Shown piece by piece: positions 807 to 14,746 of a DNA stretch of 64,000 nucleotides. This DNA is from a virus: IMG/VR virus record IMGVR_UViG_3300044971_004534, one strand, 5' to 3'. The position numbers were made by a program, and so were the translations under genes. Within the stretch, counting starts at the first letter, position 1, and the number at the start of each line of letters is the position of its first letter. The notes beneath the pieces were generated by a model. That model was given only the letters and a program-made list of their open reading frames with translations. It was not told the origin of the DNA and made no database searches.

Positions 807-821
807 GCCTCGTTTTCCCCC
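807..821 (+). promoter_or_regulatory. intergenic motif copy (function unknown)
   Basis: gcctcgttttccccc; C-run end to ATG 842 = 21 nt. Confidence 0.8.
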
Positions 822-841
822 ACCGCACCGGGGTTTGAGCC

Positions 842-1090
842 ATGTCGCGGCGAAAGCAAGAAAAGGAAGCACAATGGCGTCTGAGATATGGCGATGCAGT
901 TGATTCGGATGCAACCATTGAATGCTCAGAGTGCGGCGAGGTGTTACTTGGTGATGGACCGATCATCGAAGTGGTCTGCCTTACCTGTTGGATGAGGCAA
1001 GACCCGCTTGAAGAACTACTTGAGATTGCAGAGGATAAGGATGAGCAGCAGCGAAGAACTACTCAACAAGATGGCAACTGCCCATCTTGA
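842..1090 (+). CDS. hypothetical protein, CxxC..CxxC zinc-ribbon-like
   Basis: ATG lies exactly 21 nt after the C-run of motif copy 807-821; CSECGEV...CLTC. Confidence 0.55.
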   Translation: MSRRKQEKEAQWRLRYGDAVDSDATIECSECGEVLLGDGPIIEVVCLTCWMRQDPLEELLEIAEDKDEQQRRTTQQDGNCPS

Positions 1091-1337
1091 GCCTCACATC
1101 AAGTCCGAGGTTTACGACTTCCTCAAGCGTGAGGAGCGCGAACTTTGCATCGACATTGATGATGCTGTAGAGTCTGCTCGTCAGGCACTCATTCCCATTG
1201 TGCATGAGGCGAAGGTGTCTTTTGAGGACTGTCACCTGATGCGGCTGCTTATCAAACAGGCAGTTCAGGAAGTCGGCTACGATGCAAGTGAGCCGTTTTT
1301 TGAACGAGAAGAATCGGGGTACTACAACGATGAATAG
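1041..1337 (+). CDS. hypothetical protein
   Basis: In-frame ATG with AAGG 4 nt upstream. Start uncertain (1008, 1041 or 1071); it overlaps the tail of 842..1090. Confidence 0.45.
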   Translation: MSSSEELLNKMATAHLEPHIKSEVYDFLKREERELCIDIDDAVESARQALIPIVHEAKVSFEDCHLMRLLIKQAVQEVGYDASEPFFEREESGYYNDE

Positions 1338-1527
1338 CGAAATCAGGAACCGGTTGAAGGAACTGATCGAAGGCGAAAGCAACTCAGAGATCAAGGAACT
1401 GTCTGCCATGCTGTTCTTCTCCATGACTTGCATGGAGTATGTGGGGCAAGTCGATCCTGAACTGCACAAGCGAGCCACCGCATTCGCAGCAGAGACTCAC
1501 GGGCTTGAAGGAGTTGACTTCTCCTGA
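1330..1527 (+). CDS. hypothetical protein (65 aa)
   Basis: Internal ATG of track ORF 1282..1527; 8-nt overlap with the stop of the previous gene. Confidence 0.5.
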   Translation: MNSEIRNRLKELIEGESNSEIKELSAMLFFSMTCMEYVGQVDPELHKRATAFAAETHGLEGVDFS

Positions 1528-1538
1528 CTTTTTCCCCC
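1524..1538 (+). promoter_or_regulatory. intergenic motif copy
   Basis: ctgactttttccccc; 21 nt to ATG 1559. Confidence 0.8.
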
Positions 1539-1558
1539 TTGCCGGGGGAGGTTGTGGC

Positions 1559-2086
1559 ATGGCACGGTACGGCTATCAAACGCCCGCGCAAAAGAAAATC
1601 CGCGCAAAGGCAAGTCGCATCCTCAGGAACAAGGTTCCTGATGGGTGGCGTTTGCGCTTGTCCTTCAAGCGTGCAGCAAACCCACGAATGTTCCGCAAGG
1701 GCTTGCCCATTGTCATAGACAAGTACGACAAGTACTGGGTGACTGCGACAAAGTACCTTGGACCAACAAAGTCGCACAAGGGGTATCCATACCTCAAGTT
1801 GTTCCTGTACCCAAACGGTGACCGTGTGTGGAGCCTGAGCAACTGGGCTGACCAAGGCACCGCATCTCATGTCAGCACTCAACTGGCACTGCTTGCTGCC
1901 ACCGAAATGGATCGTGTGTTTCAATGCCTTGAAGCACTCTACGCCATGTGCGACACCGACAATGGTGGAATGAACTTCCTGATTGGAGTAAGCAAGGTCA
2001 AGACTCTCTCTGACTGGGCAGACTCTTTTTCCCCCGCCAAGGAAGATGTTGCATCATGGACGACAACACCATCATCTCCGTCTTGA
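1559..2086 (+). CDS. hypothetical protein; N-terminus resembles that of 3995..4465
   Basis: ATG 21 nt after motif 1524-1538, preceded by GGGGGAGG. The track start at 1439 lies upstream of the motif and was rejected. KKIRAKASRILRNKVPDGW vs KRKVAKKLKGRLPKGW in 3995..4465. Confidence 0.55.
   Translation: MARYGYQTPAQKKIRAKASRILRNKVPDGWRLRLSFKRAANPRMFRKGLPIVIDKYDKYWVTATKYLGPTKSHKGYPYLKLFLYPNGDRVWSLSNWADQGTASHVSTQLALLAATEMDRVFQCLEALYAMCDTDNGGMNFLIGVSKVKTLSDWADSFSPAKEDVASWTTTPSSPS
2021..2035 (+). promoter_or_regulatory. intergenic motif copy (inside the 3' end of 1559..2086)
   Basis: gactctttttccccc; 21 nt to ATG 2056. Confidence 0.75.
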
Positions 2087-2766
2087 ATCAGAACGGCAGC
2101 GACTTTGCCAAGTCTCTCGTTGCTTCTCACGGCAAGTGGGGGCGTTGGACTCCCAAGCAGAGAGCGTGTGCTGAGGAGATCGTTCGTGTCACTCAGGCAC
2201 CGAAGCAGGAGGTTGCTTCTGCGGCACTGAAGGGCATTGTTGATCTGTTTGCCCGTCCGATTTCTCGCGGTATGAAGCGACCGAAGTTGTCCTTCATCTT
2301 GGATACAAAGAAGTTGACCATCAGCATGGCTCCTGCCATGAAGGGCAGCAGTCCTCACCCCAACGCAGGGTGCTTCTACGTCAAGTACGAAGGCTTGTAT
2401 TGCGGCAAGATCACTCCAAGTGGACTCTTTCAGGGTCGCCACGGGTTCGTTCCTCAGAACGTCATGGACTTCATGGAAGTGTTTGCCAAGGACCCCCTGA
2501 CGGTTGGCTCTGAGTACGGCAGAAAGAGCGGCTGCTGCTGCTTCTGCGGGATGGGTCTGAGCGATGGCAGGTCGCTCATCAAGGGCTACGGACCCGTCTG
2601 CGCCAATCATTGGGAACTTCCTTGGGGCGATGAGAAGGAGGAGAACATGAAGCGGTCTGAGCAGTCAGACATCGCTCCCGATGTCCCGATTATTCAACTC
2701 AGACAGGCTGCTCATGGGATGTCTGAGGGCTGCCGTGAAGATGTCGTAGACATTCATCCTGATTGA
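2056..2766 (+). CDS. hypothetical protein with DUF6011-like C-terminal Cys motif
   Basis: ATG 21 nt after motif 2021-2035; CCCFCGMGLSDGRSLIKGYGPVC resembles the CxxC...GxGPxC signature of DUF6011. Confidence 0.6.
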   Translation: MDDNTIISVLNQNGSDFAKSLVASHGKWGRWTPKQRACAEEIVRVTQAPKQEVASAALKGIVDLFARPISRGMKRPKLSFILDTKKLTISMAPAMKGSSPHPNAGCFYVKYEGLYCGKITPSGLFQGRHGFVPQNVMDFMEVFAKDPLTVGSEYGRKSGCCCFCGMGLSDGRSLIKGYGPVCANHWELPWGDEKEENMKRSEQSDIAPDVPIIQLRQAAHGMSEGCREDVVDIHPD

Positions 2767-2820
2767 AAGAATCTGATATACTCTGTCTTGACAGTTTCGA
2801 GACAGGGGCTAAACTGCCTA

Positions 2821-2838
2821 GCCGCCTCGTTTTCCCCC
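2821..2838 (+). promoter_or_regulatory. intergenic motif copy
   Basis: gccgcctcgttttccccc; 70 nt to ATG 2908; the 33 nt from 2821 are identical to those from 9451. Confidence 0.8.
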
Positions 2839-2907
2839 TTCCCCGGTGGGGTTAGGGCAGACGGCTTGAATGGCAAGCCTGAACAAAAGTCATAACAAAG
2901 GACGAAT

Positions 2908-3927
2908 ATGGCACACAACATCGTGACTGACGGCGCTCTCCGCGACCGGATGCTGATTGAGGGCGACAAGGGTTGGCACGGGCTGGGCGAGGATCGCAAG
3001 TCGATCTCCGCGAAGGATGTCCGTGAGGCGTTCCCGTGGGATTGGCAGATGGACGATCTCCTGCTGCCCAACGGCAACAAGGTGGACGGCTTCAAGGCTG
3101 TGACGAGCGAGGGCAACGCCGTGGGCGTTGTCGGTGACTCCTACACCATGATCGGCATTGACGATGTGGTGTCTCTCGCGGAGGACATCATCCTTCAGCA
3201 CGGCACGGGTCGCATCGTGTCGGCAGGTACGCTTCACGGTCGGCAGGACTTCTTCCTTGACCTTGAGTTGGGCAAGGAGTTCCGCAACGGCGATGATGTG
3301 AACAAGCCGTACATCGGTCTGTCCAACAACGCGGTCGGGTCGCGTCACTTCATCGGTGGAGCGCATATGCACCGCATCGTCTGTGCGAACACGCTCAACC
3401 TGATGATCGGTGAGGCAAAGACTTCTCCGCGCTGCCTCAAGGTGCGCCACACGAAGTCCGCTTTCAACCGCCTGTCGGAAGCGAAGCGCATCCTTGGTAT
3501 CGCTTGTGCGGCGTTCGACAAGGCTGACGCAGAGATGCAGGCGATGATCGCCAAGTCTCTGACCGATGCAGAGGTCGAAGCGTACTACAACACGATCATG
3601 CCCGTGCAGGCAGTCCCCGGACTCTCTGCGGGCGAGAACGCGGAGCAGTACGAGGCGAAGGTCGAGAAGATCGAACGCGCTAACCGCAAGACGGAGCGTG
3701 TCCGCGATGTGTGGTGGGACACGCTGAACACGGAGCGTCAGATTCTCAAGTCTGCGTCGCCCAACCTGTGGCTCGCTATGAACAGCGTGACCAAGTGGGC
3801 GCAGCACGACCGCTCTGTGCGCGGCGAGTCCGATGATCCGATGATGCGCCTGTGGAGCAATCGGTTCAGCGATGGGTTCGACCGGACGAACGAGGCTCAC
3901 GATATCGCGGTGGCGATGCTCAAGTGA
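2908..3927 (+). CDS. DUF932 / TIGR03299-like phage-plasmid protein
   Basis: 339 aa; N-terminal GWHGLG, GDSYTMIG, HGRQDFFLDLELG and IVCANTL blocks are typical of DUF932 as I recall it. Confidence 0.7.
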   Translation: MAHNIVTDGALRDRMLIEGDKGWHGLGEDRKSISAKDVREAFPWDWQMDDLLLPNGNKVDGFKAVTSEGNAVGVVGDSYTMIGIDDVVSLAEDIILQHGTGRIVSAGTLHGRQDFFLDLELGKEFRNGDDVNKPYIGLSNNAVGSRHFIGGAHMHRIVCANTLNLMIGEAKTSPRCLKVRHTKSAFNRLSEAKRILGIACAAFDKADAEMQAMIAKSLTDAEVEAYYNTIMPVQAVPGLSAGENAEQYEAKVEKIERANRKTERVRDVWWDTLNTERQILKSASPNLWLAMNSVTKWAQHDRSVRGESDDPMMRLWSNRFSDGFDRTNEAHDIAVAMLK

Positions 3928-3934
3928 CCGGGAT

Positions 3935-3969
3935 GGGGAGGGGCGCAAGCCCCTCCCCTCTCTCGTTTT
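3935..3969 (+). terminator. intrinsic-terminator-like hairpin merging into a motif copy
   Basis: GGGGAGGGGC-gcaa-GCCCCTCCCC (10 bp), then tctctcgtttt. Confidence 0.65.
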
Positions 3970-3974
3970 CCCCC
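3961..3974 (+). promoter_or_regulatory. intergenic motif copy
   Basis: tctcgttttccccc; 21 nt to ATG 3995. Confidence 0.8.
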
Positions 3975-3994
3975 TCAACCGGAGTGTTTGAGAT

Positions 3995-4465
3995 ATGTCG
4001 CTAGTCAACTATCGAACGATGACCCCATACGAGTGGACCCCGGAGCAGGCGCGTAATGGGAAGTTTGAGACTGCCAAGCGCAAGGTCGCCAAGAAGTTGA
4101 AGGGCAGGCTTCCAAAGGGATGGTCTTACAAGATCATCGCTCCATACAACCACGGCAAGGTGCGGTGGGAGATCAAGATGGATTATGGTCCGCACCCGTG
4201 GATCACGATTCGTTGGCGTCCGTGCATGGCTGAAAAGGATTCCGTGCTTCACTATTGGATGGAAGTGAATGAGTCCAATCAAGGTTGTCCTGAGTTTGAC
4301 CCTTTGAGTGGTGCAAATGCGGTCATGCGTGATCTGCCGATCATCCTTGATGTGGTGCAGGACATCTTTGACGGACTGAATCCTGATCCGCTCATGCAAC
4401 TCCACGCGATGGCAAAGAAGGCAACTGCCTCGTTTTCCCCCTCATCCGTGCAGGTTGAGGCATGA
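3995..4465 (+). CDS. hypothetical protein
   Basis: ATG 21 nt after motif 3961-3974; the 3' end reads through motif copy 4427-4441. Confidence 0.55.
   Translation: MSLVNYRTMTPYEWTPEQARNGKFETAKRKVAKKLKGRLPKGWSYKIIAPYNHGKVRWEIKMDYGPHPWITIRWRPCMAEKDSVLHYWMEVNESNQGCPEFDPLSGANAVMRDLPIILDVVQDIFDGLNPDPLMQLHAMAKKATASFSPSSVQVEA
4427..4441 (+). promoter_or_regulatory. intergenic motif copy (inside the 3' end of 3995..4465)
   Basis: gcctcgttttccccc; 21 nt to ATG 4462, which opens only a 58-codon ORF. Confidence 0.75.
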
Positions 4466-4506
4466 GGAGCCTTTATTCCAAGTCGATAAAGACGAGCAGG
4501 CTGAAG

Positions 4507-4520
4507 TCTCTTTTTCCCCC
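4507..4520 (+). promoter_or_regulatory. intergenic motif copy
   Basis: tctctttttccccc; 69 nt to ATG 4589. Confidence 0.75.
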
Positions 4521-4588
4521 TCCAACGGTACACCTGGTAACACCAACGAGTCCGGTTTTTTCAACCACAACGCAGAAAGGCAAGAACA

Positions 4589-4981
4589 ATGGCGTACAAG
4601 TGCGTGGCTCATCTGGGCGGCAACGAGGGCGAAGGTAGTCACAGTTGGGAGTTCGACCTTCCCACCGTGGAGGAGTGTCTGGATCAGTTGTTCTACAACA
4701 TGAACCACGAGGAAACGACTCCTCTCAATGCTCGTTCCATGTCCGTTGGCGATTGCGCCAGCGTGTCAAACATGAGCAAGCATGTCTCTCTTACCCGTCA
4801 CTTCATCTGCCTTTCGGTGGGTTGGTGCGAGGTGACGGAGCATGTCCTGCACAAGTGGATGCGGCATGACTGGAACCGCAGGATGCTGCACCCGCTTGTT
4901 GGCGTGACCGATCCTCTACTGGCACTGCTTCATGTGCAGAAGATGGATGCGGGATTCATGCGGATGGGCGAGAAGGTTTAG
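4589..4981 (+). CDS. hypothetical protein
   Basis: ORF track; CAGAAAGG SD block 6 nt upstream. Confidence 0.55.
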   Translation: MAYKCVAHLGGNEGEGSHSWEFDLPTVEECLDQLFYNMNHEETTPLNARSMSVGDCASVSNMSKHVSLTRHFICLSVGWCEVTEHVLHKWMRHDWNRRMLHPLVGVTDPLLALLHVQKMDAGFMRMGEKV

Positions 4982-4987
4982 TCAGTC

Positions 4988-5002
4988 GCCTCGTTTTCCC
5001 CC
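4988..5002 (+). promoter_or_regulatory. intergenic motif copy
   Basis: gcctcgttttccccc; 21 nt to ATG 5023. Confidence 0.8.
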
Positions 5003-5022
5003 TTAGATGGGGAGGTTGCAGC

Positions 5023-5508
5023 ATGGCTACACGAAGCATGATCGGAATGACCCTGACCAACGGCGAGATCAAGGCGATCTATTGCCATTGGGACGGGTAC
5101 ATCAGCAACAACGGCATGATTCTTTACAACTGCTACAACACGGTTGAGCAAGTTGAAGCCCTCATGTCTCTTGGCGACCTGTCAAGCCTCCGCGAAAAGT
5201 TGGGCGAGAAGCATGACATGACCGATCCTCTCAATAAGGTCGGAAGCGACAATGGATGGTGTACGGCTTTCGGGCGTGACCGTGGCGACGAGGGTTGTGA
5301 AGCGCGAATCCTCAAGGACAACCGGAAACTCAAGTCACTTGCCCAAAGTGTTTGGGCTGAATGGATTTACCTGTACGACTGCCACAACAAGGAGTGGCTT
5401 GTAAAGCCCACATCAGAAGGTCGTTACAGGAAGTTGTACGATGTTCTTCTTGAGGATGGGTTGATTGATCCCATTGATGAACTTCTAAATACGGCAAAGC
5501 AGGACTAA
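5023..5508 (+). CDS. hypothetical protein
   Basis: ATG 21 nt after motif 4988-5002, with GGGGAGG SD. Confidence 0.6.
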   Translation: MATRSMIGMTLTNGEIKAIYCHWDGYISNNGMILYNCYNTVEQVEALMSLGDLSSLREKLGEKHDMTDPLNKVGSDNGWCTAFGRDRGDEGCEARILKDNRKLKSLAQSVWAEWIYLYDCHNKEWLVKPTSEGRYRKLYDVLLEDGLIDPIDELLNTAKQD

Positions 5509-5514
5509 GCAACT

Positions 5515-5529
5515 CCCTCGTTTTCCCCC
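5515..5529 (+). promoter_or_regulatory. intergenic motif copy
   Basis: ccctcgttttccccc; 52 nt to ATG 5581. Confidence 0.8.
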
Positions 5530-5580
5530 TCCCCTGCCGGGTTTGGGGCAGCACAGGTCATCAACACAAAGGAACTCACT

Positions 5581-5961
5581 ATGGGCGCATGGGGATACAA
5601 GGCATTCGACAACGATCACGCTCTTGATTGGGCTGGCATCGTGATCGACGACGCTTTTTGGGGCAAGGTCAAGAAGGGTCTTGAAGGCAATAATCACGAT
5701 GAGATTCGTGCTGCTGCCGGAATCACCATCGCGGTTCTCTCCGGTTGCCGTGGAGTTACTCCCTACGGCTTCAACATCCTGAAGATTGCATACGATGCGC
5801 TGAAGCGTGTCTTGAATGACAGCGAGTGGCTTGATTCGTGGGACAACCCCGAAGCGGTCAGAAAAGAAATCAAGCAGCAGATGAATGATCTAGCAAAGAT
5901 CAACCCTGCTACGACTCTTTCCGAAGTTCTTGCCGAATGTGACACGGAACTGTCACAGTAA
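5581..5961 (+). CDS. DUF4259-like protein
   Basis: N-terminus MGAWGYKAFDNDHALDW matches the MGxWGxxxFDND signature of DUF4259. Confidence 0.65.
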   Translation: MGAWGYKAFDNDHALDWAGIVIDDAFWGKVKKGLEGNNHDEIRAAAGITIAVLSGCRGVTPYGFNILKIAYDALKRVLNDSEWLDSWDNPEAVRKEIKQQMNDLAKINPATTLSEVLAECDTELSQ

Positions 5962-5975
5962 ACGAAAGGAAACAC

Positions 5976-6332
5976 ATGAAGCCCAATGTCCCTGAGCGTC
6001 TTGCCATCGCTACCGTCCTGATCGGATGCGGGAGCCTCCGTGCTGCCCTCATCAAGATGAACGAGAAGGATCGCAAGTGGTGCAACTCTATCCGTACTCA
6101 CTTTGACAACATTCAGCAGTCCCTCACGGGTTCAGACATCTCCATGCGCGCTGCCGTCAATGCGTGGGACGAAGTGAAGCAGATTCTTGACGATGGTTTC
6201 AACGGAACCCCCTACAGCGCGGACGAGATTGACGATGTGATGTACCTGTTCGGTGCCGTGGACGAGACTTTCTACGCCATGCTTGACAAGGCTGGCGTTC
6301 CGTTTGAACCCGAAATCAATATGCAGGACTAA
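5976..6332 (+). CDS. hypothetical protein
   Basis: ORF track; GAAAGGA SD 6 nt upstream. Confidence 0.55.
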   Translation: MKPNVPERLAIATVLIGCGSLRAALIKMNEKDRKWCNSIRTHFDNIQQSLTGSDISMRAAVNAWDEVKQILDDGFNGTPYSADEIDDVMYLFGAVDETFYAMLDKAGVPFEPEINMQD

Positions 6333-6334
6333 CC

Positions 6335-6499
6335 ATGAACGACCCCTATTCCAACTTCCCGCTTCAGCAGAAGCAGATCACCTACTGCATGGCTTGCCCC
6401 GAAGGTAGGTATGTCGCCCATTCGTGGATCAGTCTTGGATGGGCAATCCTGCGGCACCGCATTTGGCACCTGTTCAAGCATGGCAGGTGGATGGACTGA
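6335..6499 (+). CDS. small hypothetical protein (54 aa, below track cutoff)
   Basis: Hand translation MNDPYSNFPLQQKQITYCMACPEGRY...; fills the gap between 6332 and motif copy 6496-6510. Confidence 0.35.
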   Translation: MNDPYSNFPLQQKQITYCMACPEGRYVAHSWISLGWAILRHRIWHLFKHGRWMD

Positions 6500-6510
6500 C
6501 TTTTTCCCCC
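6496..6510 (+). promoter_or_regulatory. intergenic motif copy
   Basis: ctgactttttccccc; 21 nt to ATG 6531. Confidence 0.8.
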
Positions 6511-6530
6511 TGCCCGAAAGGACTTGAGGC

Positions 6531-7118: not shown

Positions 7119-7129
7119 AGAAGGCAACT

Positions 7130-7144
7130 GCCTCGTTTTCCCCC
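7130..7144 (+). promoter_or_regulatory. intergenic motif copy
   Basis: gcctcgttttccccc; 34 nt to ATG 7178. Confidence 0.8.
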
Positions 7145-8229: not shown

Positions 8230-8230
8230 T

Positions 8231-8431: not shown

Positions 8432-8438
8432 GGCAACT

Positions 8439-8453
8439 GCCTCGTTTTCCCCC
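8439..8453 (+). promoter_or_regulatory. intergenic motif copy
   Basis: gcctcgttttccccc; 21 nt to GTG 8474. Confidence 0.8.
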
Positions 8454-8473
8454 ACCGAAGGAGGTGTTGCATC

Positions 8474-8872: not shown

Positions 8873-8881
8873 GGCACCGCA

Positions 8882-9187
8882 ATGAAGATCAAGAAGGCAA
8901 TCGCTGAACTCAAGCGTTTGGAGAAGGAGTTTGGAGGAGATCAGCACATCTGCTGCTTCTATGTGTGTCCAAACTTTGTAATCGACTCTGCAAGTCATCA
9001 AGACAAGTCCATTACCGCAGAAATCGCGGGAAAGATTCTGAAGGAAGTGATGGCAGAGGAGGAGCGCGAAGGACATATGTTCCGCGTGTTCTCCGATCTT
9101 GTCGATGCCTACATCGCTGATTACGACCCTGACCCCCTTGACGATCTCGTAGACGCAGCAAAGTCCAAGAAGAAAGGCAAGAAATGA
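8882..9187 (+). CDS. hypothetical protein
   Basis: ORF track; C-terminal DPLDDLVDAAKSKKK resembles the tail of the next gene. Confidence 0.5.
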   Translation: MKIKKAIAELKRLEKEFGGDQHICCFYVCPNFVIDSASHQDKSITAEIAGKILKEVMAEEEREGHMFRVFSDLVDAYIADYDPDPLDDLVDAAKSKKKGKK

Positions 9188-9447
9188 CGCATCCTGCAAA
9201 CAAGCAAACCGCTGATTTCCTCCTCAAGCAGCAGCGGCGTGTGTTCACCATCGACCTAACTGCCCTTGATGTCGCTGACCATCTTGGTTGCAGCGAGGAG
9301 CGCGCAGAGCGTGTCATTGAAGATATGTCTCACAACTGCGATGCTCTGTTTGACTACATCTGGAACCTTGTTGACGAGTGTGCAACGGGGATTCCTGAAG
9401 ATCCAATCGCTGACCTGATGGATGCGGCGAAGAAGGACGAGAAGTAA
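9184..9447 (+). CDS. hypothetical protein
   Basis: ATGA overlap with the previous gene; C-terminal DPIADLMDAAKKDEK. Confidence 0.5.
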   Translation: MTHPANKQTADFLLKQQRRVFTIDLTALDVADHLGCSEERAERVIEDMSHNCDALFDYIWNLVDECATGIPEDPIADLMDAAKKDEK

Positions 9448-9450
9448 GCA

Positions 9451-9468
9451 GCCGCCTCGTTTTCCCCC
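9451..9468 (+). promoter_or_regulatory. intergenic motif copy
   Basis: gccgcctcgttttccccc; 64 nt to ATG 9532. Confidence 0.8.
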
Positions 9469-9531
9469 TTCCCCGGTGGGGTTGCGGTGTTGCCCGCCGT
9501 GGGCAGCAGACGCAACAAGAAAGGACGAACG

Positions 9532-9960
9532 ATGACGATGACGAAGATCAGCCTCGATGTGAAGTCGAAGGGTGCTGCGGAGATCGTGAAGGAACTCCTC
9601 AACCTCCCCGAAGGCTTCACCTCCGGTCGCGTGGAAGTGGCGTTCAACTTCACCGCCGACAAGGGTGCGGACGAGACTTACACCGCCGTGCAGGAACTCT
9701 GCCCGTGGACGCTCGTGGCGGTTCTCATGTCCAAGATCAACGGGGTTACGCAGGATGCCGTGATCGACTGCATCCCCACGATCATGGAGATGAACGACAA
9801 GCAGCGCAAGGTGCTGCGCGAGTCGCTGAAGGAGTCCACCACGAAGCGGCTTGAGGAGATGGGCGCATTCGTGCAGAAGGTGCGCTCCGGCAAGACGCGC
9901 ATCGAAGTGGCGGGCGATGCCACCGTGACGGGGGATAACCTCCCGGTCGCAACCGCCTAA
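9532..9960 (+). CDS. hypothetical protein
   Basis: In-frame ATG with AAAGGA 7 nt upstream (track start 9487 rejected). Confidence 0.55.
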   Translation: MTMTKISLDVKSKGAAEIVKELLNLPEGFTSGRVEVAFNFTADKGADETYTAVQELCPWTLVAVLMSKINGVTQDAVIDCIPTIMEMNDKQRKVLRESLKESTTKRLEEMGAFVQKVRSGKTRIEVAGDATVTGDNLPVATA

Positions 9961-9975
9961 CAGACCCCCGGAACG

Positions 9976-10009
9976 GAGGGGAGGCAAGTAGTGCGCCTCC
10001 CCTCTTTTT
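9976..10009 (+). terminator. terminator-like hairpin
   Basis: GAGGGGAGGC-9 nt loop-GCCTCCCCTC, then ttttt. Confidence 0.65.
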
Positions 10010-10014
10010 CCCCC
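10001..10014 (+). promoter_or_regulatory. intergenic motif copy
   Basis: cctctttttccccc; 21 nt to ATG 10035. Confidence 0.8.
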
Positions 10015-10034
10015 TCAACCGGAGTATTTGCGGC

Positions 10035-10148
10035 ATGGACACAATCATCCTCATGCTCATCGGATCGAACCTTGCCTTGATTGGCTACCTGTGCCACAAG
10101 GACATGAAGGGCAAGCGCAGCAAGTCGCGCAGGAAGGCAACGGCGTGA
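10035..10148 (+). CDS. small membrane protein (37 aa, below track cutoff)
   Basis: ATG 21 nt after motif 10001-10014; MDTIILMLIGSNLALIGYLC followed by a basic tail. Confidence 0.35.
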   Translation: MDTIILMLIGSNLALIGYLCHKDMKGKRSKSRRKATA

Positions 10149-10456
10149 AGTCGAACCCTTACATTCAGATGCTTGAACCTCTCATCGGTGGAACGATCAC
10201 GAAGATCATCTACGATGAAAGCGACCCGCATGGTGATCCGTTCTGCGGCTTCATCGTGACGCGACCCGAAGCCGTGTATCAGGTGATTGCCTTGCGTGAT
10301 CCCGAAGGCAACGGAGCCGGGTTCGTGGAAGTGACGAAGGTAAGAACTTGGCTGAAGGACACTTGCGACAAGTGTGGCGGACTGATCAACGGGATTGACA
10401 AGTTCCCCGCAGTTGGTACAATGGGCGTACCGATCTGCACAGATTGCGACAACTAA
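10145..10456 (+). CDS. hypothetical protein
   Basis: GTGA overlap with the 10035 ORF; an alternative ATG exists at 10168; C-terminal CDKCGG...CTDC. Confidence 0.45.
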   Translation: MKSNPYIQMLEPLIGGTITKIIYDESDPHGDPFCGFIVTRPEAVYQVIALRDPEGNGAGFVEVTKVRTWLKDTCDKCGGLINGIDKFPAVGTMGVPICTDCDN

Positions 10457-10466
10457 TCCTTTCTGC

Positions 10467-10510
10467 GAAGGGAGTGCGTTCCGAAGTGAATGCGCTCCCT
10501 TCCTCTTTTT
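10467..10510 (+). terminator. terminator-like hairpin
   Basis: GAAGGGAGTGC...GCGCTCCCTTC (one G.U pair), then ctcttttt. Confidence 0.55.
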
Positions 10511-10515
10511 CCCCC
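10501..10515 (+). promoter_or_regulatory. intergenic motif copy
   Basis: tcctctttttccccc; 39 nt to ATG 10554. Confidence 0.8.
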
Positions 10516-10553
10516 TGTTCCCCGCCTCTTGGGTTGTCGAAAGGAGACAACGA

Positions 10554-10805
10554 ATGGGTTACAAGCAGATTGGTCGCCTCATCGTTTCGCAAGATGAGAG
10601 CGAGTGGATTGACATCAAGCGTCCGTGTGTCGTGACGGGTGAACCGTACAGCGTCAGCGTTCGCCGCACCGATTGGGATGCGTGGAAGGGCGGCAAGTTG
10701 GCGCAACTTGCGTTCCCTTACCTCTCCCGCGAGGATCGTGAGTTCATCATCAGCGGAACCAGCCCGCAAGGTTGGGAGGAGTTGTTTGGAGGTAACGATG
10801 AGTGA
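10554..10805 (+). CDS. hypothetical protein
   Basis: In-frame ATG with GAAAGGAG SD, 39 nt after motif 10501-10515. Confidence 0.55.
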   Translation: MGYKQIGRLIVSQDESEWIDIKRPCVVTGEPYSVSVRRTDWDAWKGGKLAQLAFPYLSREDREFIISGTSPQGWEELFGGNDE

Positions 10806-10938
10806 TCCATCGCTAGACCCCTCTGACGAGGACAACTACGACGGCGGCGAGTTCTTCTACGAGGAGCCGTCTGACGAGCCAATGTGGGAGCCAAACGAGT
10901 TCTACACCGATCCCATGTACGGGTCGGAAACTTTCTAA
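10798..10938 (+). CDS. small acidic protein (46 aa)
   Basis: ATG overlaps the previous stop by 8 nt; the product is D/E/P/Y-rich. Confidence 0.4.
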   Translation: MSDPSLDPSDEDNYDGGEFFYEEPSDEPMWEPNEFYTDPMYGSETF

Positions 10939-10952
10939 TCTTCTTGCGTCCT

Positions 10953-10994
10953 GCGGGGCGGGGTACTTCCTTTCCCCCGCCCCGCTATCTTTTT
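10953..10994 (+). terminator. terminator-like hairpin
   Basis: GCGGGGCGGGG-loop-CCCCGCCCCGC, then tatctttt. Confidence 0.6.
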
Positions 10995-10999
10995 CCCCC
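10986..10999 (+). promoter_or_regulatory. intergenic motif copy
   Basis: tatctttttccccc; 21 nt to ATG 11020. Confidence 0.8.
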
Positions 11000-11019
11000 T
11001 TTGCCGACAAACTTCTAGC

Positions 11020-11244
11020 ATGGACAAGAGAACTTCCCCCATCAACGGTCTGTACCTCCACGATGTCTACACCGATGCTGCCCGCATCAAGTCGTGCTTC
11101 CCGTGGGCTGATGTGAAGCCCGGAATGGAGATGGAGTGCTGGTCTACTCCGTTCAACTTCCCGTCGCCCACCGATTTCAACATCCTCATGCTGCGAGACA
11201 TGAACGGCGAACTGATCGCCACGAAGCGCGAGGAGGGTTACTAA
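11020..11244 (+). CDS. hypothetical protein
   Basis: ATG 21 nt after motif 10986-10999. Confidence 0.5.
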   Translation: MDKRTSPINGLYLHDVYTDAARIKSCFPWADVKPGMEMECWSTPFNFPSPTDFNILMLRDMNGELIATKREEGY

Positions 11245-11255
11245 ACCCTCTTTTT
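11233..11255 (+). terminator. terminator-like hairpin spanning the stop codon
   Basis: GAGGGTT-acta-AACCCTC, then ttttt. Confidence 0.55.
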
Positions 11256-11260
11256 CCCCC
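11246..11260 (+). promoter_or_regulatory. intergenic motif copy
   Basis: ccctctttttccccc; 39 nt to ATG 11299. Confidence 0.8.
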
Positions 11261-11298
11261 ACCGTGGTAGACTTTTGGGCAGAAAGGAACTTCCCCCA

Positions 11299-11487
11299 AT
11301 GGCTGAACTGCGAGTCACGATCAACCTGAACAACGACGCCTTCCATGTGGACGAGTTCAACGAGGTGTCCCGCGTCTTTGAGAGTCTTGCGCGCAAGGTG
11401 GCGCGAGGCGACATGAGGAACCACGCCATCATGGACTCCAACGGCAACACGGTCGGTTCGTTCACCGTGATTGACGAGGATGCGTGA
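11299..11487 (+). CDS. hypothetical protein (62 aa)
   Basis: ATG with AGAAAGGA SD, 39 nt after motif 11246-11260. Confidence 0.5.
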   Translation: MAELRVTINLNNDAFHVDEFNEVSRVFESLARKVARGDMRNHAIMDSNGNTVGSFTVIDEDA

Positions 11488-11708
11488 TGGAGTATCCCAA
11501 CAAGTGCATCAAGTGCGGAGAGGTTCACCAAGACCCCAACGCAGGACGATGGACGGAATGCAGGGAGTGCGAGGCTCGTAGCCCAAGAGTCATCACCCCT
11601 TCCTACTTCCATTTCGTGACGGGAATGACAGACGAACAACTGGAGGCAACCTATGAAGCCCAACGACAACTCGTCCTCAACCACAAGCGGAACAAAGTGC
11701 GGATGTGA
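11484..11708 (+). CDS. hypothetical zinc-ribbon protein
   Basis: ATGA overlap with the previous gene; CIKCGEV...CRECE. Confidence 0.5.
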   Translation: MMEYPNKCIKCGEVHQDPNAGRWTECRECEARSPRVITPSYFHFVTGMTDEQLEATYEAQRQLVLNHKRNKVRM

Positions 11709-11826
11709 CGGGTGTGACGGGTCATTCGATCCCGATGCCCTCACGGAGTGCAGGTACGACTATCCCGATGAATCGTGGGAGTGGTTCAAGTTCTGCCCCG
11801 ATTGCCTCAAGGCTGACGCATTCTAG
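11653..11826 (+). CDS. possible small Cys-rich protein (57 aa), overlapping alternate frame
   Basis: Hand translation ...KCGCDGCDGSFDPDALTECRYDYPDESWEWFKFCPDCLKADAF; GGAGG 6 nt upstream of the ATG; 56-nt overlap with 11484..11708. Confidence 0.3.
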   Translation: MKPNDNSSSTTSGTKCGCDGCDGSFDPDALTECRYDYPDESWEWFKFCPDCLKADAF

Positions 11827-11832
11827 GCAGCC

Positions 11833-11847
11833 GCCTCGTTTTCCCCC
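11833..11847 (+). promoter_or_regulatory. intergenic motif copy
   Basis: gcctcgttttccccc; 34 nt to ATG 11881. Confidence 0.8.
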
Positions 11848-11880
11848 TGCCTCGCACCGCTTGGGGCAGAAAGGAAACTC

Positions 11881-12198
11881 ATGCAGCCCAAGTATGTGAA
11901 CCTCACCGACAAGCCCGCTGACTACTCCGACAACAACGGTCACGGTCAGCCCACCCACCTCCAGTCGCGTAGCACCGGAAGGTGGATCAAGACTCCCGAT
12001 GGCTACTGCCGTCGTGACGATGGCATCATCTCCCACAAGTACCTCAAGAACGAGGAAGGCGAGTGGGAGTGGTTCCCCGTCCCGTCTACGGAGGAACTCA
12101 ACTTCATGGCGTTCGACTCCGTGTGCCAAACGCCGTGGGGCGACGATGTGGAACCCGATCACCCCAAGTCGTGGCTCCGCATCTTGGGAATGATCTGA
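11881..12198 (+). CDS. hypothetical protein
   Basis: ATG 34 nt after motif 11833-11847, with GGGGCAGAAAGGA block. Confidence 0.55.
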   Translation: MQPKYVNLTDKPADYSDNNGHGQPTHLQSRSTGRWIKTPDGYCRRDDGIISHKYLKNEEGEWEWFPVPSTEELNFMAFDSVCQTPWGDDVEPDHPKSWLRILGMI

Positions 12199-12249
12199 AC
12201 CCCCGGAAGGGATGGGGGAGTTGATGGCAACATCCTCCCCTGTCCTTCC

Positions 12250-12263
12250 TCTCGTTTTCCCCC
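12250..12263 (+). promoter_or_regulatory. intergenic motif copy
   Basis: tctcgttttccccc; 39 nt to ATG 12302. Confidence 0.8.
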
Positions 12264-12301
12264 AGTCGGGTAGTTTTTCGGGCAACAAGAAAGGTACTTC
12301 A

Positions 12302-12523
12302 ATGAACGACACCCTCCTCAGCATCTTCATGGCTTGCGACACGATCAAGGCGACCATCCTTGAGAACGCTCAACTCAAGGAGGAGAATGCTCAACTCCGT
12401 GAGCGCATCAAGGCGGCTGACGCTGCGCGTGATGAGGGATTCCGTTCTGCGGAGCGGTATCACGAGGAGATGGTGAAGTCCCTGCTCAGCGGGGAACTCA
12501 TCGTCAACAGGGGAGGAAACTAG
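12302..12523 (+). CDS. hypothetical coiled-coil protein
   Basis: In-frame ATG with AGAAAGG SD, 39 nt after motif 12250-12263. Confidence 0.5.
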   Translation: MNDTLLSIFMACDTIKATILENAQLKEENAQLRERIKAADAARDEGFRSAERYHEEMVKSLLSGELIVNRGGN

Positions 12524-12529
12524 GCAACC

Positions 12530-12544
12530 GCCTCGTTTTCCCCC
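12530..12544 (+). promoter_or_regulatory. intergenic motif copy
   Basis: gcctcgttttccccc; 52 nt to ATG 12596. Confidence 0.8.
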
Positions 12545-12595
12545 TTCCCCGCTCCCGTTAGGACACAGCCCCAAAGGGGCAGAAAGGATCGCAAG

Positions 12596-12958
12596 ATGAA
12601 GAAGATGCTCGTTATCAAGATGAACGGTCAGGTGGAGGAGCGCGAGAACACGGGTCTGGAGTCCCTCCAGTCGGGTGTCGGTGGCTGGATCGAAGGCATC
12701 GACTTGGGCAACGGCGCGATGATGTACTGCAACGAGGAGGGCAAGTGCAACGGTCTGCCCGCTAACCTCGTCGCTACGCGCCTCTACGAGAACGCATTCG
12801 GCAAGGGCATCGACATCGTCGTGGGCGATGTGGTCATCGTCGGCTACATCTCCCCCTCCGGTGAGAACGACGGCGAGGACTACGACTACCCCGCGTGGGT
12901 GTCGGACGCAGCACGCAAGGAAGCGGAAGCGTTCGCACCGCGCTGCACGGTGTCGTGA
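12596..12958 (+). CDS. DUF3846-like protein
   Basis: LQSGVGGWIEGIDL...YCNEEGKCNGLPAN...GDVVIVG matches my recollection of DUF3846. Confidence 0.6.
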   Translation: MKKMLVIKMNGQVEERENTGLESLQSGVGGWIEGIDLGNGAMMYCNEEGKCNGLPANLVATRLYENAFGKGIDIVVGDVVIVGYISPSGENDGEDYDYPAWVSDAARKEAEAFAPRCTVS

Positions 12959-12968
12959 ACAAGAGAAG

Positions 12969-13003
12969 GGGAGGGAGTCGAAAGGCTCCCTCCCTCTCTT
13001 TTT
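12969..13003 (+). terminator. terminator-like hairpin
   Basis: GGGAGGGAG-tcgaaagg-CTCCCTCCC, then tctcttttt. Confidence 0.6.
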
Positions 13004-13007
13004 CCCC
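12994..13007 (+). promoter_or_regulatory. intergenic motif copy (4-C variant)
   Basis: ctctctttttcccc; 40 nt to ATG 13047. Confidence 0.7.
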
Positions 13008-13046
13008 TCGCACCGCACTGCTTGGGGCAGAAAGGAAAGCAACAGA

Positions 13047-13217
13047 ATGGGTAAGGGAATGATTCGAATCGCCGTAGTGATCTGTGTGGCGTTCACCGTG
13101 TCTGCCGCCATCATGTGGGCATTCATCAACTGGCTAGACGCCAATCCCGTAGTGGTGGCTGGGTTCCTTGGAATGGGCTACGCAAGCAACCATTTCTTCA
13201 ACCCACCGCGCCGCTAG
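13047..13217 (+). CDS. small membrane protein (56 aa)
   Basis: In-frame ATG after GGGGCAGAAAGGA; two hydrophobic segments. Confidence 0.45.
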   Translation: MGKGMIRIAVVICVAFTVSAAIMWAFINWLDANPVVVAGFLGMGYASNHFFNPPRR

Positions 13218-13285
13218 CACCGAAGCACCGCACCGCGCACCGCTTTTCGCGGGGAAGGGAATCTAGGGGAACAAATCCTCTTTTT

Positions 13286-13299
13286 CCCCTCCCCGCCAA
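13286..13299 (+). promoter_or_regulatory. intergenic motif copy (4-C variant)
   Basis: tcctctttttcccc; 26 nt to ATG 13325. Confidence 0.7.
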
Positions 13300-13324
13300 G
13301 CCGTTGGAACAGAAAGGAACCCCC

Positions 13325-13552
13325 ATGAACGAAGAATGGTGGAAGAACACCAAGCCAGACCCGGTCAGGAGTGGCTACAGCGTGGTCGATACGGTCACGC
13401 TGGAGGAACGCGAACTCTCCGTACATGACGCAAACCACCGCTTGCAGCAGGAATGCAACTCCCTGCGGGCGAAACTGCGAAACATGGAGGAGCAGATCAA
13501 GAAGTTGCAGATCGAACGCGACCTGCTCATGCAGATCGTTCTCAAGAAGTAA
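13325..13552 (+). CDS. hypothetical coiled-coil protein
   Basis: In-frame ATG after CAGAAAGGA. Confidence 0.5.
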   Translation: MNEEWWKNTKPDPVRSGYSVVDTVTLEERELSVHDANHRLQQECNSLRAKLRNMEEQIKKLQIERDLLMQIVLKK

Positions 13553-13578
13553 GCCACATACGGCTCACTTCCACCTGT

Positions 13579-13593
13579 GGCTCGTTTTCCCCC
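13579..13593 (+). promoter_or_regulatory. intergenic motif copy
   Basis: ggctcgttttccccc; 40 nt to ATG 13633. Confidence 0.8.
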
Positions 13594-13632
13594 TCTCCCT
13601 CCCCTCTTGGGGAGCAGAAAGGAAGAAACGCC

Positions 13633-13791
13633 ATGAAGTCAGTCGTAGACATCGCTCGCAAGATCGCGTGGGAGACTCGCAGGGACGAGATCGCTGCGGG
13701 TCGTCGCGTCCGCTCCAAGACTTGGGGCAAGAAGTCGCGTGATCCCCGCAAGGCACGACGCGAAAGCAGGCGCGAACTCTCGCGTATGTAG
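13633..13791 (+). CDS. small basic protein (52 aa)
   Basis: In-frame ATG after GCAGAAAGGA, 40 nt after motif 13579-13593. Confidence 0.4.
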   Translation: MKSVVDIARKIAWETRRDEIAAGRRVRSKTWGKKSRDPRKARRESRRELSRM

Positions 13792-13808
13792 AGCGCGCCC
13801 AAGCAGCC

Positions 13809-13823
13809 GCCTCGTTTTCCCCC
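13809..13823 (+). promoter_or_regulatory. intergenic motif copy
   Basis: gcctcgttttccccc; 52 nt to ATG 13875. Confidence 0.8.
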
Positions 13824-13874
13824 TGCCCCGCTCCCGTTGGGTCAGCCCCAAAGGGGCAGAAAGGACGCTGCAAC

Positions 13875-14078
13875 ATGAAGAAGCAGCACGACGCGGGTTT
13901 CGGGTGCATGGGGGACACGGTGGAGGTGGAGGCGCGTGTGACCGGCAAGGGCGGGCGGTCGTGGACGAGCCTCGACCGCAAGGTGGAGGCGGAGGGGCAG
14001 AGCCTCGCCTACATGGGTCGCCTGTGGTTCTGCGGCAAGGTCTGGGAATGCCCGACCCCTGAAACCGCCCTCGCCTGA
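13875..14078 (+). CDS. hypothetical protein (67 aa)
   Basis: ORF track; 52-nt leader class. Confidence 0.45.
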   Translation: MKKQHDAGFGCMGDTVEVEARVTGKGGRSWTSLDRKVEAEGQSLAYMGRLWFCGKVWECPTPETALA

Positions 14079-14099
14079 AGCGGCGGAACCGTCCCCGAA

Positions 14100-14121
14100 G
14101 GGGAGCCGAAAGCGGCTCCCC
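14100..14121 (+). terminator. GC hairpin (weak T tract)
   Basis: GGGGAGCCG-aaag-CGGCTCCCC. Confidence 0.4.
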
Positions 14122-14147
14122 TTCCTCATTTGGTGAACTAGGCAGCC

Positions 14148-14162
14148 GTATCGTTTTCCCCC
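14148..14162 (+). promoter_or_regulatory. intergenic motif copy
   Basis: gtatcgttttccccc; 54 nt to ATG 14216. Confidence 0.8.
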
Positions 14163-14215
14163 TGCCTCGCTCCCGTTGTGGTGTAGCCCCAACGGGGCAG
14201 AAAGGATACGCAAGA

Positions 14216-14698
14216 ATGGACAAGCAGCAGAAGATGTCGGCTCTCGCGCAGATCATCGGGAGCAACCCGCAGAAGGCGGAGTTCGCGGCGAGCCTCCTGG
14301 GTGCGCTGGCGAAGGGCAACCCGACCCCCAAGCAGGCGGAGTGGATCGACCGCCTCATCAACGAGGAAGCGAACCCCGTCCCGTCGCTCACGCTCGCCCC
14401 GCTCGTGGAGGCGTTCCGCGCAGCGGCGCAGGCGGTCAAGTTCCCGAAGGTCGTCGTGGAGGCTGACGGCGTGGAGTGGACGCTCTCGTACACTCGCCCC
14501 GACTCCGACAAGGCGAAGCCCGAGAACAAGGACACGGTGGGCATCGCATCGGGCAAGTGGGGCGACCCCGCCGCGAAGTGGGCAGGGCGCATCCTCGCGG
14601 ATGGCACGGTGAAGTGGGGCAAGGACGCGACCCCCGCTCTCGCGGACGCCATCGCCGCCATCCCGACCGCTCCGCTCCCCCTCAAGACGCGGAAGTGA
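14216..14698 (+). CDS. hypothetical protein
   Basis: ORF track; 54-nt leader class. Confidence 0.5.
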   Translation: MDKQQKMSALAQIIGSNPQKAEFAASLLGALAKGNPTPKQAEWIDRLINEEANPVPSLTLAPLVEAFRAAAQAVKFPKVVVEADGVEWTLSYTRPDSDKAKPENKDTVGIASGKWGDPAAKWAGRILADGTVKWGKDATPALADAIAAIPTAPLPLKTRK

Positions 14699-14706
14699 AC
14701 AGCGGA

Positions 14707-14741
14707 GGGGCGGGAGTCGAAAGGCTCCCGCCCCTCGTTTT
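14707..14741 (+). terminator. terminator-like hairpin
   Basis: GGGGCGGGAG-tcgaaagg-CTCCCGCCCC, then tcgtttt. Confidence 0.6.
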
Positions 14742-14746
14742 CCCCC
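14732..14746 (+). promoter_or_regulatory. intergenic motif copy
   Basis: ccctcgttttccccc; 52 nt to ATG 14798. Confidence 0.8.

Follow-up and report, generated by a model that had tools for sequence, protein, structure and literature searches.

What kind of signal is repeated, always in the same orientation, between the small genes at one end of a giant phage sequence? The question is raised by IMGVR_UViG_3300044971_004534, an element classed as viral in IMG/VR and belonging to an uncultivated giant freshwater phage, of which a stretch of 64,000 nucleotides (the window, meaning here this whole stretch) carries the short sequence TTTTCCCCC many times over in its first 15 kb. The repeat is real and highly non-random. 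Its anatomy and its behaviour in related phages suggest that each copy is probably part of a phage-private promoter, often built into a terminator/promoter cassette, from which leaderless or short-leader mRNAs of a probably early gene module would be made.

The octamer occurs in 25 exact copies in the window, all on the plus strand between 813 and 14746, where dinucleotide-preserving shuffles give a chance expectation of 0.73 and a maximum of 4. Two copies of the variant TTTTCCCCT (at 13000 and 13282) bring the count to 27, reproducing the number and the strand bias claimed by an earlier note made from reading this DNA. A search for the two-part pattern TTTTCCCCC-N13-TTGNGGC, allowing 3 mismatches at most, yields 26 distinct units in the window, all on the plus strand and all within 813-14766, against 1.75 expected. 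That nothing comparable lies between 15 and 64 kb was likewise borne out: the only other 8-mer matches there, at 16525 (+) and 48121 (-), are isolated and lack the remainder of the unit, and this AT-rich part contained no repeated motif and no unit on either strand, though its genes occupy both. The array was indeed found at 807-14746, as the note had it, but is not confined to that stretch, since seven more copies lie within 7 kb upstream of the window and another at window position -9731. The resulting total of 35, made up of 27 copies in the window and 8 read upstream in other assemblies, is a lower bound (at least 8 upstream). The window sequence is base-for-base identical in five independent assemblies, one of them the 280,008-bp contig JBFDDZ010001906.1, in which it occupies positions 14345-78344. 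No near-identical DNA was found among INPHARED phages, and the exact 14-mer CCTCGTTTTCCCCC gave single chance matches only across IMG/VR. Five copies of TTTCCCCC at a further locus (L088) proved unrelated, being reverse-complemented Shine-Dalgarno (SD)-ATG sites.

The TTTTCCCCC motif makes up the upstream half of a unit that is 36 bp long and rigid in layout. An upstream block, cCTCg-TTTTCCCCC, spans -34 to -21 and is followed by exactly 13 unconstrained bases, with no insertions or deletions, by a downstream block TTGnGGC at -7 to -1, and by a purine at +1. The +1 purine is present in 34 of the 35 copies and a pyrimidine at -1 in 33; a pyrimidine/purine step is the usual start-site dinucleotide of RNA polymerases (RNAPs). 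What follows the purine takes one of three forms. A start codon, ATG or GTG, begins exactly at +1 in 17 of the 35 units, where we estimate about one by chance; in a second form the +1 purine is the first base (A) of the SD sequence AGAAAGGA, with a leader of 13-19 nt; and in a third it stands 0-4 nt before a small GC hairpin or opens a longer leader, of 31-49 nt, ending CA followed by GAAAGG. These three forms account for the "quantised" distances to start codons described earlier. All 11 members of the 21-nt distance class were recovered, with TTG at -7 to -5 and C at -1, and so were the longer classes; the distance to the ATG itself, however, is not the fixed feature, the true invariant being a purine 20 nt past the C-run (34/35). 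The SD-like purine run reported in the spacer is also present, but mainly in units abutting the ATG, where it lies at -14 to -9, and is mostly absent from long-leader units. The 27 units of the window are as follows.

807..842, + strand: unit with +1 at the A of ATG 842, predicted leaderless; gene 842-1090
1524..1559, + strand: unit, CTGACT variant, +1 at the A of ATG 1559; gene 1559-2086; overlaps the end of the upstream open reading frame (ORF)
2021..2056, + strand: unit inside the 3' end of gene 1559-2086, +1 at the A of ATG 2056; gene 2056-2766 (DUF6011)
2824..2859, + strand: unit with +1 at 2859, 49-nt leader with hairpin 2863-2879; gene 2908-3927 (DUF932)
3960..3995, + strand: unit preceded by hairpin 3935-3958, +1 at the A of ATG 3995; gene 3995-4465
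4427..4462, + strand: unit with +1 at the A of ATG 4462; gene 4462-4638
4506..4541, + strand: degenerate copy (TTTTCCCCC at 4512), upstream block intact, downstream CTGGTAA, +1 a C; next gene 4589-4981
4988..5023, + strand: unit with +1 at the A of ATG 5023; gene 5023-5508
5515..5550, + strand: unit with +1 at 5550, 31-nt leader; gene 5581-5961
6496..6531, + strand: unit with +1 at the A of ATG 6531; gene 6531-7118 (3'-5' exonuclease-like)
7130..7165, + strand: unit with +1 at the A of AGAAAGGA, 13-nt leader; gene 7178-7723 (DUF1281_C)
7760..7795, + strand: unit with +1 at the A of ATG 7795; gene 7795-8229
8439..8474, + strand: unit with +1 at the G of GTG 8474; gene 8474-8872
9454..9489, + strand: unit with +1 at G 9489, 43-nt leader opening with hairpin 9489-9507; gene 9532-9960
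10000..10035, + strand: unit with +1 at the A of ATG 10035; ORF 10035-10148
10501..10536, + strand: unit with +1 a G, 18-nt leader with AAAGGAG; gene 10554-10805
10985..11020, + strand: unit with +1 at the A of ATG 11020; gene 11020-11244
11246..11281, + strand: unit with +1 at the A of AGAAAGGA, 18-nt leader; gene 11299-11487
11833..11868, + strand: unit with +1 at the A of AGAAAGGA, 13-nt leader; gene 11881-12198
12249..12284, + strand: unit with 18-nt leader, implying a start at ATG 12302 and not the longer ORF from 12212
12530..12565, + strand: unit with 31-nt leader, 5' hairpin 12568-12580 (GCCCCAAAGGGGC) and then AGAAAGGA; gene 12596-12958 (DUF3846)
12994..13029, + strand: unit, TTTTCCCCT variant, preceded by hairpin 12968-12995, 18-nt leader; gene 13047-13217
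13276..13311, + strand: unit, TTTTCCCCT variant, 14-nt leader; gene 13325-13552
13579..13614, + strand: unit with +1 a G, 19-nt leader; gene 13633-13791
13809..13844, + strand: unit with 31-nt leader, 5' hairpin 13845-13857; gene 13875-14078
14148..14183, + strand: unit with +1 a G, 33-nt leader, 5' hairpin 14186-14198; gene 14216-14698
14732..14767, + strand: last unit, +1 a G, 31-nt leader, 5' hairpin 14770-14782; gene 14798-15061

The degenerate copy at 4506..4541 is possibly weak or inactive. All the units lie in one gene module, which they punctuate almost without exception.

1..15100, + strand: GC-rich module of co-directional small genes, reaching at least 9.7 kb upstream of the window

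Every gap of at least 30 nt in the module holds a unit, except two beside tRNA genes, while genes that have no unit overlap the preceding gene or follow it at no more than 17 nt. At junctions without a gap, the final codons of the preceding gene contain the unit, an overlap already remarked on in the earlier reading and seen here for some units. In this way the array delimits about 32-34 blocks resembling transcription units, with 1-3 genes each; the module genes include UvdE, WD40-like, DUF4116, DUF6915, DUF4241, DUF5983, DUF6011, DUF932, DUF1281_C and DUF3846.

Related phages were gathered through a graded set of homologues of the DUF932 protein of the module (2908-3927) and fell into eight lineages with 39-89% identity in that protein, whose flanking DNA was compared. 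All eight carry the same small-gene module with a strand-locked repeat of shared geometry in matching places and no minus-strand copies. Seven of the eight use a different unit sequence, and the 89% relative retains TTTTCCCCC.

L135, DUF932 identity 89%: CT-TTTTCCCCC-N13-TTGnGGC, then A; 32 copies
L132, DUF932 identity 80%: CGTAAAG-TTCCCCC-ATAAGACGAAAGC-CTAGGGC, then ATG; 11 copies
L108, DUF932 identity 75%: CAGAAAATCCCCC-nn-GCATCGGAGATGCTAGAGy, then ATG; 29 copies
L105, L138 and L139, DUF932 identity 71%: CCCGAAtCCCGAAAAC-tGGAacGGGG-TTAGGGC, then A; 23 copies
L106 and L140, DUF932 identity 57-58%: cTTTCATCGG-n3-AATAAACTAATC; 20 copies
L109, DUF932 identity 59%: AGTTTTCAGC-n5-GATAAACTA; 25 copies
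L110, DUF932 identity 39%: AAAATGCATAAT; 19 copies

In short form the relatives' units read CGTAAAGTTCCCCC..CTAGGGC, then ATG; CAGAAAATCCCCC..GCTAGAGy, then ATG; CCCGAATCCCGAAAAC..TTAGGGC, then ATG; TTTCATCGG..ATAAACTAATC; AGTTTTCAGC..GATAAACTA; and AAAATGCATAAT. The specificity groups distinguished were TTTTCCCCC, GTTCCCCC, AAAATCCCCC, CCCGAAAAC, TTTCATCGG/AGTTTTCAGC and ATGCATAAT. The purine equivalent to +1 is kept throughout (10/11, 28/29, 23/23, 19/20, 24/25, 19/19 and 30/32 copies), and many of these units abut the ATG. Among 11 ortholog groups with an upstream unit in at least three phages, the leader class is constant within each: its length is 0 nt in all phages for six groups and 39-59 nt throughout for DUF932, while the unit upstream is each time the local version of its lineage. 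Retention of the leader class while the unit is replaced indicates that the register between unit and start codon is under selection, and the replacement of the unit in concert throughout each genome points to a trans-acting reader whose specificity has changed. In L106 and L109 the proximal block is the canonical -10 hexamer TAAACT, at -12 to -7 from the A of the ATG, and in L106 the units of the leaderless class are free of any SD-like run. A -10 element at that distance from the ATG is a known signature of leaderless promoters (PMC12340547). In L108, a tandem (GTACCC)n lies directly after the last unit, at the contig end (19649-19720).

Hairpins of two kinds stand around the units. Strong GC-rich stems immediately precede 9 of 34 units (1.7 expected), and in two relatives 9 of 29 and 10 of 23 (expectations across the three sets, 1.2-1.7). 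Two examples from the window are:

3935..3958, + strand: terminator-like GC-rich hairpin directly 5' of unit 3960
10467-10502: hairpin 5' of unit 10501, whose T-tract is the TTTTT of that unit

In several of these hairpins the T-tract is the unit's own TTTT, so that a terminated upstream RNA could not hold the whole unit, which argues for recognition at the level of DNA. On the other side of +1, the leader hairpins begin 1-4 nt downstream of the predicted start (z = -3 to -6), and their stems differ while pairing is kept (GCCCC/GGGGC, GCGGC/GCCGC, GCGAG/CTCGC, GCGGGG/TCCCGC).

Taken as a mechanism, the preferred reading would run as follows. A reader would recognise the upstream block cCTCG-TTTTCCCCC (-34 to -21) together with the start-proximal TTGnGGC (-7 to -1), and transcription would begin at the purine directly after it. 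In half of the units this +1 would be the A or G of the start codon, giving a leaderless mRNA; the others would produce a leader of 13-19 nt opening with AGAAAGGA, or one of 31-49 nt usually opening with a stem-loop. The array would work as a chain of terminator/promoter cassettes serving 1-3 small genes each, roughly one unit in four being joined to a GC-rich hairpin on its upstream side with which it shares the TTTT. The reader would be a phage-encoded specificity factor diversified among relatives, either a dedicated RNAP or a factor that redirects the host enzyme, and not the host housekeeping holoenzyme. Of the functions that the earlier note proposed as equally good, a dedicated promoter is the one favoured, by the span from -35 to +1, the invariant 13-bp spacer, the pyrimidine/purine step, the placement ahead of every gene block and the register kept across relatives that differ in unit sequence.

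Host-type promoters exist in the same genome and are recognisably different. Canonical TTGACA-N17-TATACT promoters serve the tRNA/tmRNA region left of the window, and an extended -10 of host type, TGTATACT, is found 7 nt ahead of the ATG in a rapidly diverging 88-amino-acid gene (L134 3340-3373), the last gene before the run of units that starts at UvdE. The orthologs of this gene in L132 (~1620-1648) and L135 (~670-699) have the same arrangement, with TGTATACT or TATACT. The host consensus looks ordinary in this genome, and the TTTTCCCCC unit represents a different class; the TGTATACT site, with the TAAACT of two lineages, indicates that transcript starts at the ATG are also used with recognisable promoters. 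The unit itself has no TTGACA/TATAAT geometry, its position -11 is mostly G, and the module shows no enrichment of sites resembling sigma-70 promoters (5, with 6.3 expected). Two further ideas, a sigma-54 geometry and stop codons in frame inside the proximal block, were dropped on inspection by eye, as neither suits every copy. Two near-consensus sigma-70-type sites were noted inside the module; the first would give the DUF932 gene two promoters.

2788..2815, + strand: sigma-70-type promoter-like site TTGACA-16-TAAACT, just upstream of unit 2824
10395-10422: second site, TTGACA-16-TACAAT with TG

Several points weigh against the promoter interpretation. The window-type unit has no -10-like hexamer at -12 to -7 and fits no characterised promoter class. 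The +1 is a transcription start predicted from the sequence. The SD-like run of the ATG-abutting units would be useless on a leaderless transcript and would equally suit a start site further upstream; we read it as provision for the translation of read-through transcripts. Furthermore, neither a polymerase nor a factor able to read the units was found in the window and the next 10 kb, and the one obvious candidate in the window failed as the determinant of specificity.

58075..58908, + strand: sigma-70-family factor (regions 2 and 4), tested as reader of the units

This factor is conserved and syntenic in the relatives (37-88% identity). An ortholog lies on a 162-kb contig with CCCGAAAAC-type units, 55 kb from DUF932 as in the window. 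Region 2 (FETFATYRIFGSMYDEMRKLDWVPRLTRQR) is identical in both phages and the helix of region 4.2 nearly so (IKESRSSSVHEAALKKL and IKESRSSSMHDSVLKKL). With DNA-reading regions so alike where the units are unrelated, the factor cannot account for the change of unit; its targets are more likely promoters of a conserved class in other parts of the genome. Its neighbours are ThyX, HNH, ribonucleotide reductase, dUTPase and an Fe/Mn superoxide dismutase.

Other candidates fared no better. RNAP catalytic motifs, T7-RNAP motifs and Pfam RNAP domains are lacking in the window and the next 10 kb, the DxDGD motif occurs in no frame of the window, a single-subunit RNAP gene is absent from the 84 kb inspected of the 280-kb genome, and no MotA or AsiA homologue was identified. 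The ORFs 25305-28004 and 27958-31086 were rejected as RNAPs, having no DxDGD motif and no PDB, Pfam or PHROG match; they are adjacent paralogs of 899 and 1042 amino acids with long coiled-coil-like stretches and a shared C-terminal module (..FHIAIYPKK..GLNFH..EIQSDVMQ..). The product of the 88-amino-acid gene drops from 81% identity in the same-motif relative to 41% in different-motif relatives, but this does not discriminate, as several other module genes diverge as steeply. Seven genes upstream of the array gave no usable Pfam matches. One of them (L134 232-903, window ~-9550 to -8880) encodes a 223-amino-acid protein with ~7 tandem AT-hook-like repeats (RGPGRPK) and a winged-helix-like C-terminal domain, which could coat AT-rich DNA; it is preceded by a TTTTCCCCC unit and a canonical TTGACA-N17-TATGAT promoter.

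The main rival is RNA processing, and the failure to find a dedicated polymerase is among the points in its favour. A long transcript from the host-type promoters at the left end could be cut at the pyrimidine/purine step by a phage-specific endoribonuclease, releasing leaderless or short-leader monocistronic mRNAs, with the specificity of the nuclease diverging among relatives. Such promoters do lie upstream of the array, and the predicted 5' end of the RNA keeps a set position with respect to ATG, SD or 5' hairpin; a two-block site of ~36 nt with a fixed cleavage point and a lineage-dependent specificity would suit this explanation too, and to that extent counts against promoters. Yet the units show no conserved RNA structure or covariation: their folding energy is close to that of shuffled sequence (mean -6.7 and -5.2 kcal/mol, respectively), the inverted repeat of L108 is broken without compensation, and Rfam gave no match on the units, matching only tRNAs and the tmRNA. 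In addition, the upstream RNA would stop inside the unit wherever a hairpin and its T-tract overlap the T-run, and two lineages have a canonical -10 hexamer at exactly -12 to -7, leaving RNA processing unlikely in our judgement. A signal acting on translation, whether like the start-associated sequences (SAS) of Cluster K mycobacteriophages or a C-run masking the SD as an anti-SD switch, is the least probable of the explanations weighed. It would make sense of the fixed start-codon register in half of the copies and of the SD-like run in their spacer. However, the SD falls outside the conserved blocks, the remaining half of the copies stand 13-49 nt from the ATG with a real SD downstream of the unit, and an SD tolerates spacing shifts of a few nucleotides where the register here is exact. 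The complementarity between the C-run and the downstream G-rich/SD segment, put forward in the earlier note, amounts to pairing in 15 of 35 units, which is no better than the 15.2 obtained when spacers are permuted among units and leaves the anti-SD idea unsupported; the L106 units that lack any SD-like run speak against a translational signal as well.

The same asymmetric, numerous, lineage-specific sites in one orientation and in short gaps would be expected of an operator array, and the earlier note had accordingly thought of stoperators, with a phage repressor or regulator binding the asymmetric block and blocking or modulating transcription of the module. We regard this as rather less likely than RNA processing and find the stoperator claim unsupported. 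The sites are limited to one module and not spread genome-wide. Each has two blocks at an invariant spacing, in exact register with the +1 purine and with the start codon or leader start, features that a roadblock does not need. Nor does anything point to a temperate lifestyle: no repressor or integrase came up when the window was scanned with Pfam, and neither relatives nor prophage copies were found among 185,579 species genomes (GTDB). A regulator binding the upstream block of a promoter could, however, exist, and would partly overlap with the promoter reading. It is very unlikely, finally, that the repeats are recombination linkers only, mediating cassette shuffling as proposed for the promoter-early stem-loop (PeSL) elements and having no regulatory role. 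They do separate many small, fast-evolving genes that are variably present among relatives, and some intergenic blocks recur nearly verbatim, such as GGCAGAAAGGAAACTCATG at 7162-7180 and again at 11865-11883. Recombination does not, however, need a strict +1 register, a +1 purine or a conserved leader class, and the shuffling of PeSLs comes on top of promoter function (PMC2839356, PMC4122927), making this an added role and not a rival.

With the units read as promoters, the composition of the module suggests when they would be used. GC content is 50-60% in the module (the first ~15-16 kb) and 32-44% in the rest of the window, and GC at third codon positions is 0.70 in 1-15100 as against 0.29 in 16000-64000. 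Codon usage is split in the same way between the module and the remainder, with AGA making up 6% vs 60% of Arg, TTA 0% vs 29% of Leu and AAA 5% vs 67% of Lys codons. AGA, TTA and AAA are the codons read by the phage's own tRNAs, of which Arg(tct), Leu(taa), Leu(caa), Lys(ttt) and Met are encoded in or beside the module, together with a tmRNA. By avoiding these codons the module appears to be written for the host tRNA pool, and the remainder for the phage-supplemented pool, which by inference supports the view that the module and the promoters of its class act early. The module is probably an early or host-takeover gene set, and the host is probably GC-rich. The tmRNA lies ~7.7 kb upstream of the window (L134 1730-2087; Rfam RF00023, 85.9 bits) and has the tag peptide ANESLMAVAA. 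Independent assemblies also begin almost together near the module (JBFDDZ010001906.1 with JBFDKX010000006.1, and Ga0209358_10000021 with ERZ27247887 k141_698292), at the same place or within ~400 bp, 17-31 kb upstream of DUF932; the shared contig starts may mark a physical genome end or terminal repeat.

If the units are promoters, they constitute a natural series of at least seven private specificities on one shared geometry, which could help to find the reader protein, and they supply many predicted leaderless mRNAs from a phage whose host is probably GC-rich. The genome is also a clear case of two codon "dialects", its module using host-like codons and its AT-rich remainder those of the phage tRNAs. 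In practical terms the fixed register corrects gene starts in such metagenomic phage genomes, as with 12302 instead of 12212. More tentatively, these jumbo phages may form a clade with an undescribed promoter-recognition system, either a polymerase or a small retargeting factor, which would recognise a block at -35 to -21 together with a start-proximal one, with dozens of leaderless mRNAs and at least seven specificities among phages 57-89% identical in protein. Were that so, they would hold natural orthogonal promoter/reader pairs, perhaps acting as a barrier between co-infecting relatives, and comparable orthogonal polymerase/promoter pairs are tools of synthetic biology. The system could go beyond a variant of known promoter systems should its reader turn out to be a polymerase or retargeting factor not described before.

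Among known systems, the promoters of T7, T3, SP6 and K11 come as many near-identical, strand-locked copies that are private to each phage, are assumed to co-evolve with their reader and have a fixed start. The units share the privacy, the strand-locked near-identity and the fixed start point, but T7-type promoters are contiguous over ~23 bp (-17 to +6) and start with G, whereas the units consist of two blocks between -35 and -1 with a free spacer. T4 middle promoters combine a MotA box near -30 with a sigma-70 -10 element, through sigma appropriation. This resembles the L106/L109-type units, with a box at -29 to -18 and TAAACT at -12 to -7, but not the window-type, L132, L108 and L105 units, which have no -10 hexamer.

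The early promoters of the jumbo phages phiKZ and AR9 number about 30 like the units and, as proposed for these, are independent of host sigma (PMC8244752, PMC5312081, PMC7598289). Those of phiKZ, ~30 in all, are used by a virion-packaged RNAP, have an AT-rich extended -10-like box and gave no leaderless transcripts (PMC8244752). The units differ in being C-rich, in abutting the ATG in half of the cases and in the lack of a DFDGD-type motif in the window, where phiKZ and AR9 have an AT-rich consensus and a multisubunit RNAP whose split beta/beta' genes carry that motif. The stoperators of Cluster A are asymmetric, numerous and transcription-oriented, lie in short intergenic gaps and have a lineage-specific sequence, as the units do; they are, however, single 13-bp sites spread genome-wide, bound by the immunity repressor and in no register with start codons (PMC9283540, PMC6550527), in contrast to bipartite units (-34 to -21 and -7 to -1) in one module that are locked to +1. 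The SAS and ESAS of Cluster K mycobacteriophages are also asymmetric, in one orientation and at a near-fixed distance from the starts of non-structural genes, but contain the SD, lie 3-7 bp from the start and are conserved across subclusters (PMC3203893), whereas the conserved blocks of the units exclude the SD, which lies in the spacer or downstream, and change between relatives. In Deinococcus-Thermus, an ORF-adjacent -10 element gives leaderless mRNA (PMC12340547), and in halovirus HF2 intergenic repeats carry promoters (PMC8707807). The former parallels the fixed short distance to the ATG with a start at the codon, and the latter the repeated intergenic promoters in a virus, but both rely on general host machinery and consensus, unlike the private and lineage-divergent units.

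The closest concept is that of the PeSL cassettes of T4-like phages, which join a terminator hairpin to an early promoter (PMC2839356, PMC4122927), as some of the units appear to do, and, like the units, recur in one orientation in plastic parts of large lytic phage genomes, where they separate small, variable ORFs whose function is unknown. PeSLs use a host sigma-70 early consensus that is alike across phages, whereas the units are not sigma-70-like and differ between close relatives; moreover, a hairpin accompanies only 26-43% of the units, and half of their transcripts would be leaderless.

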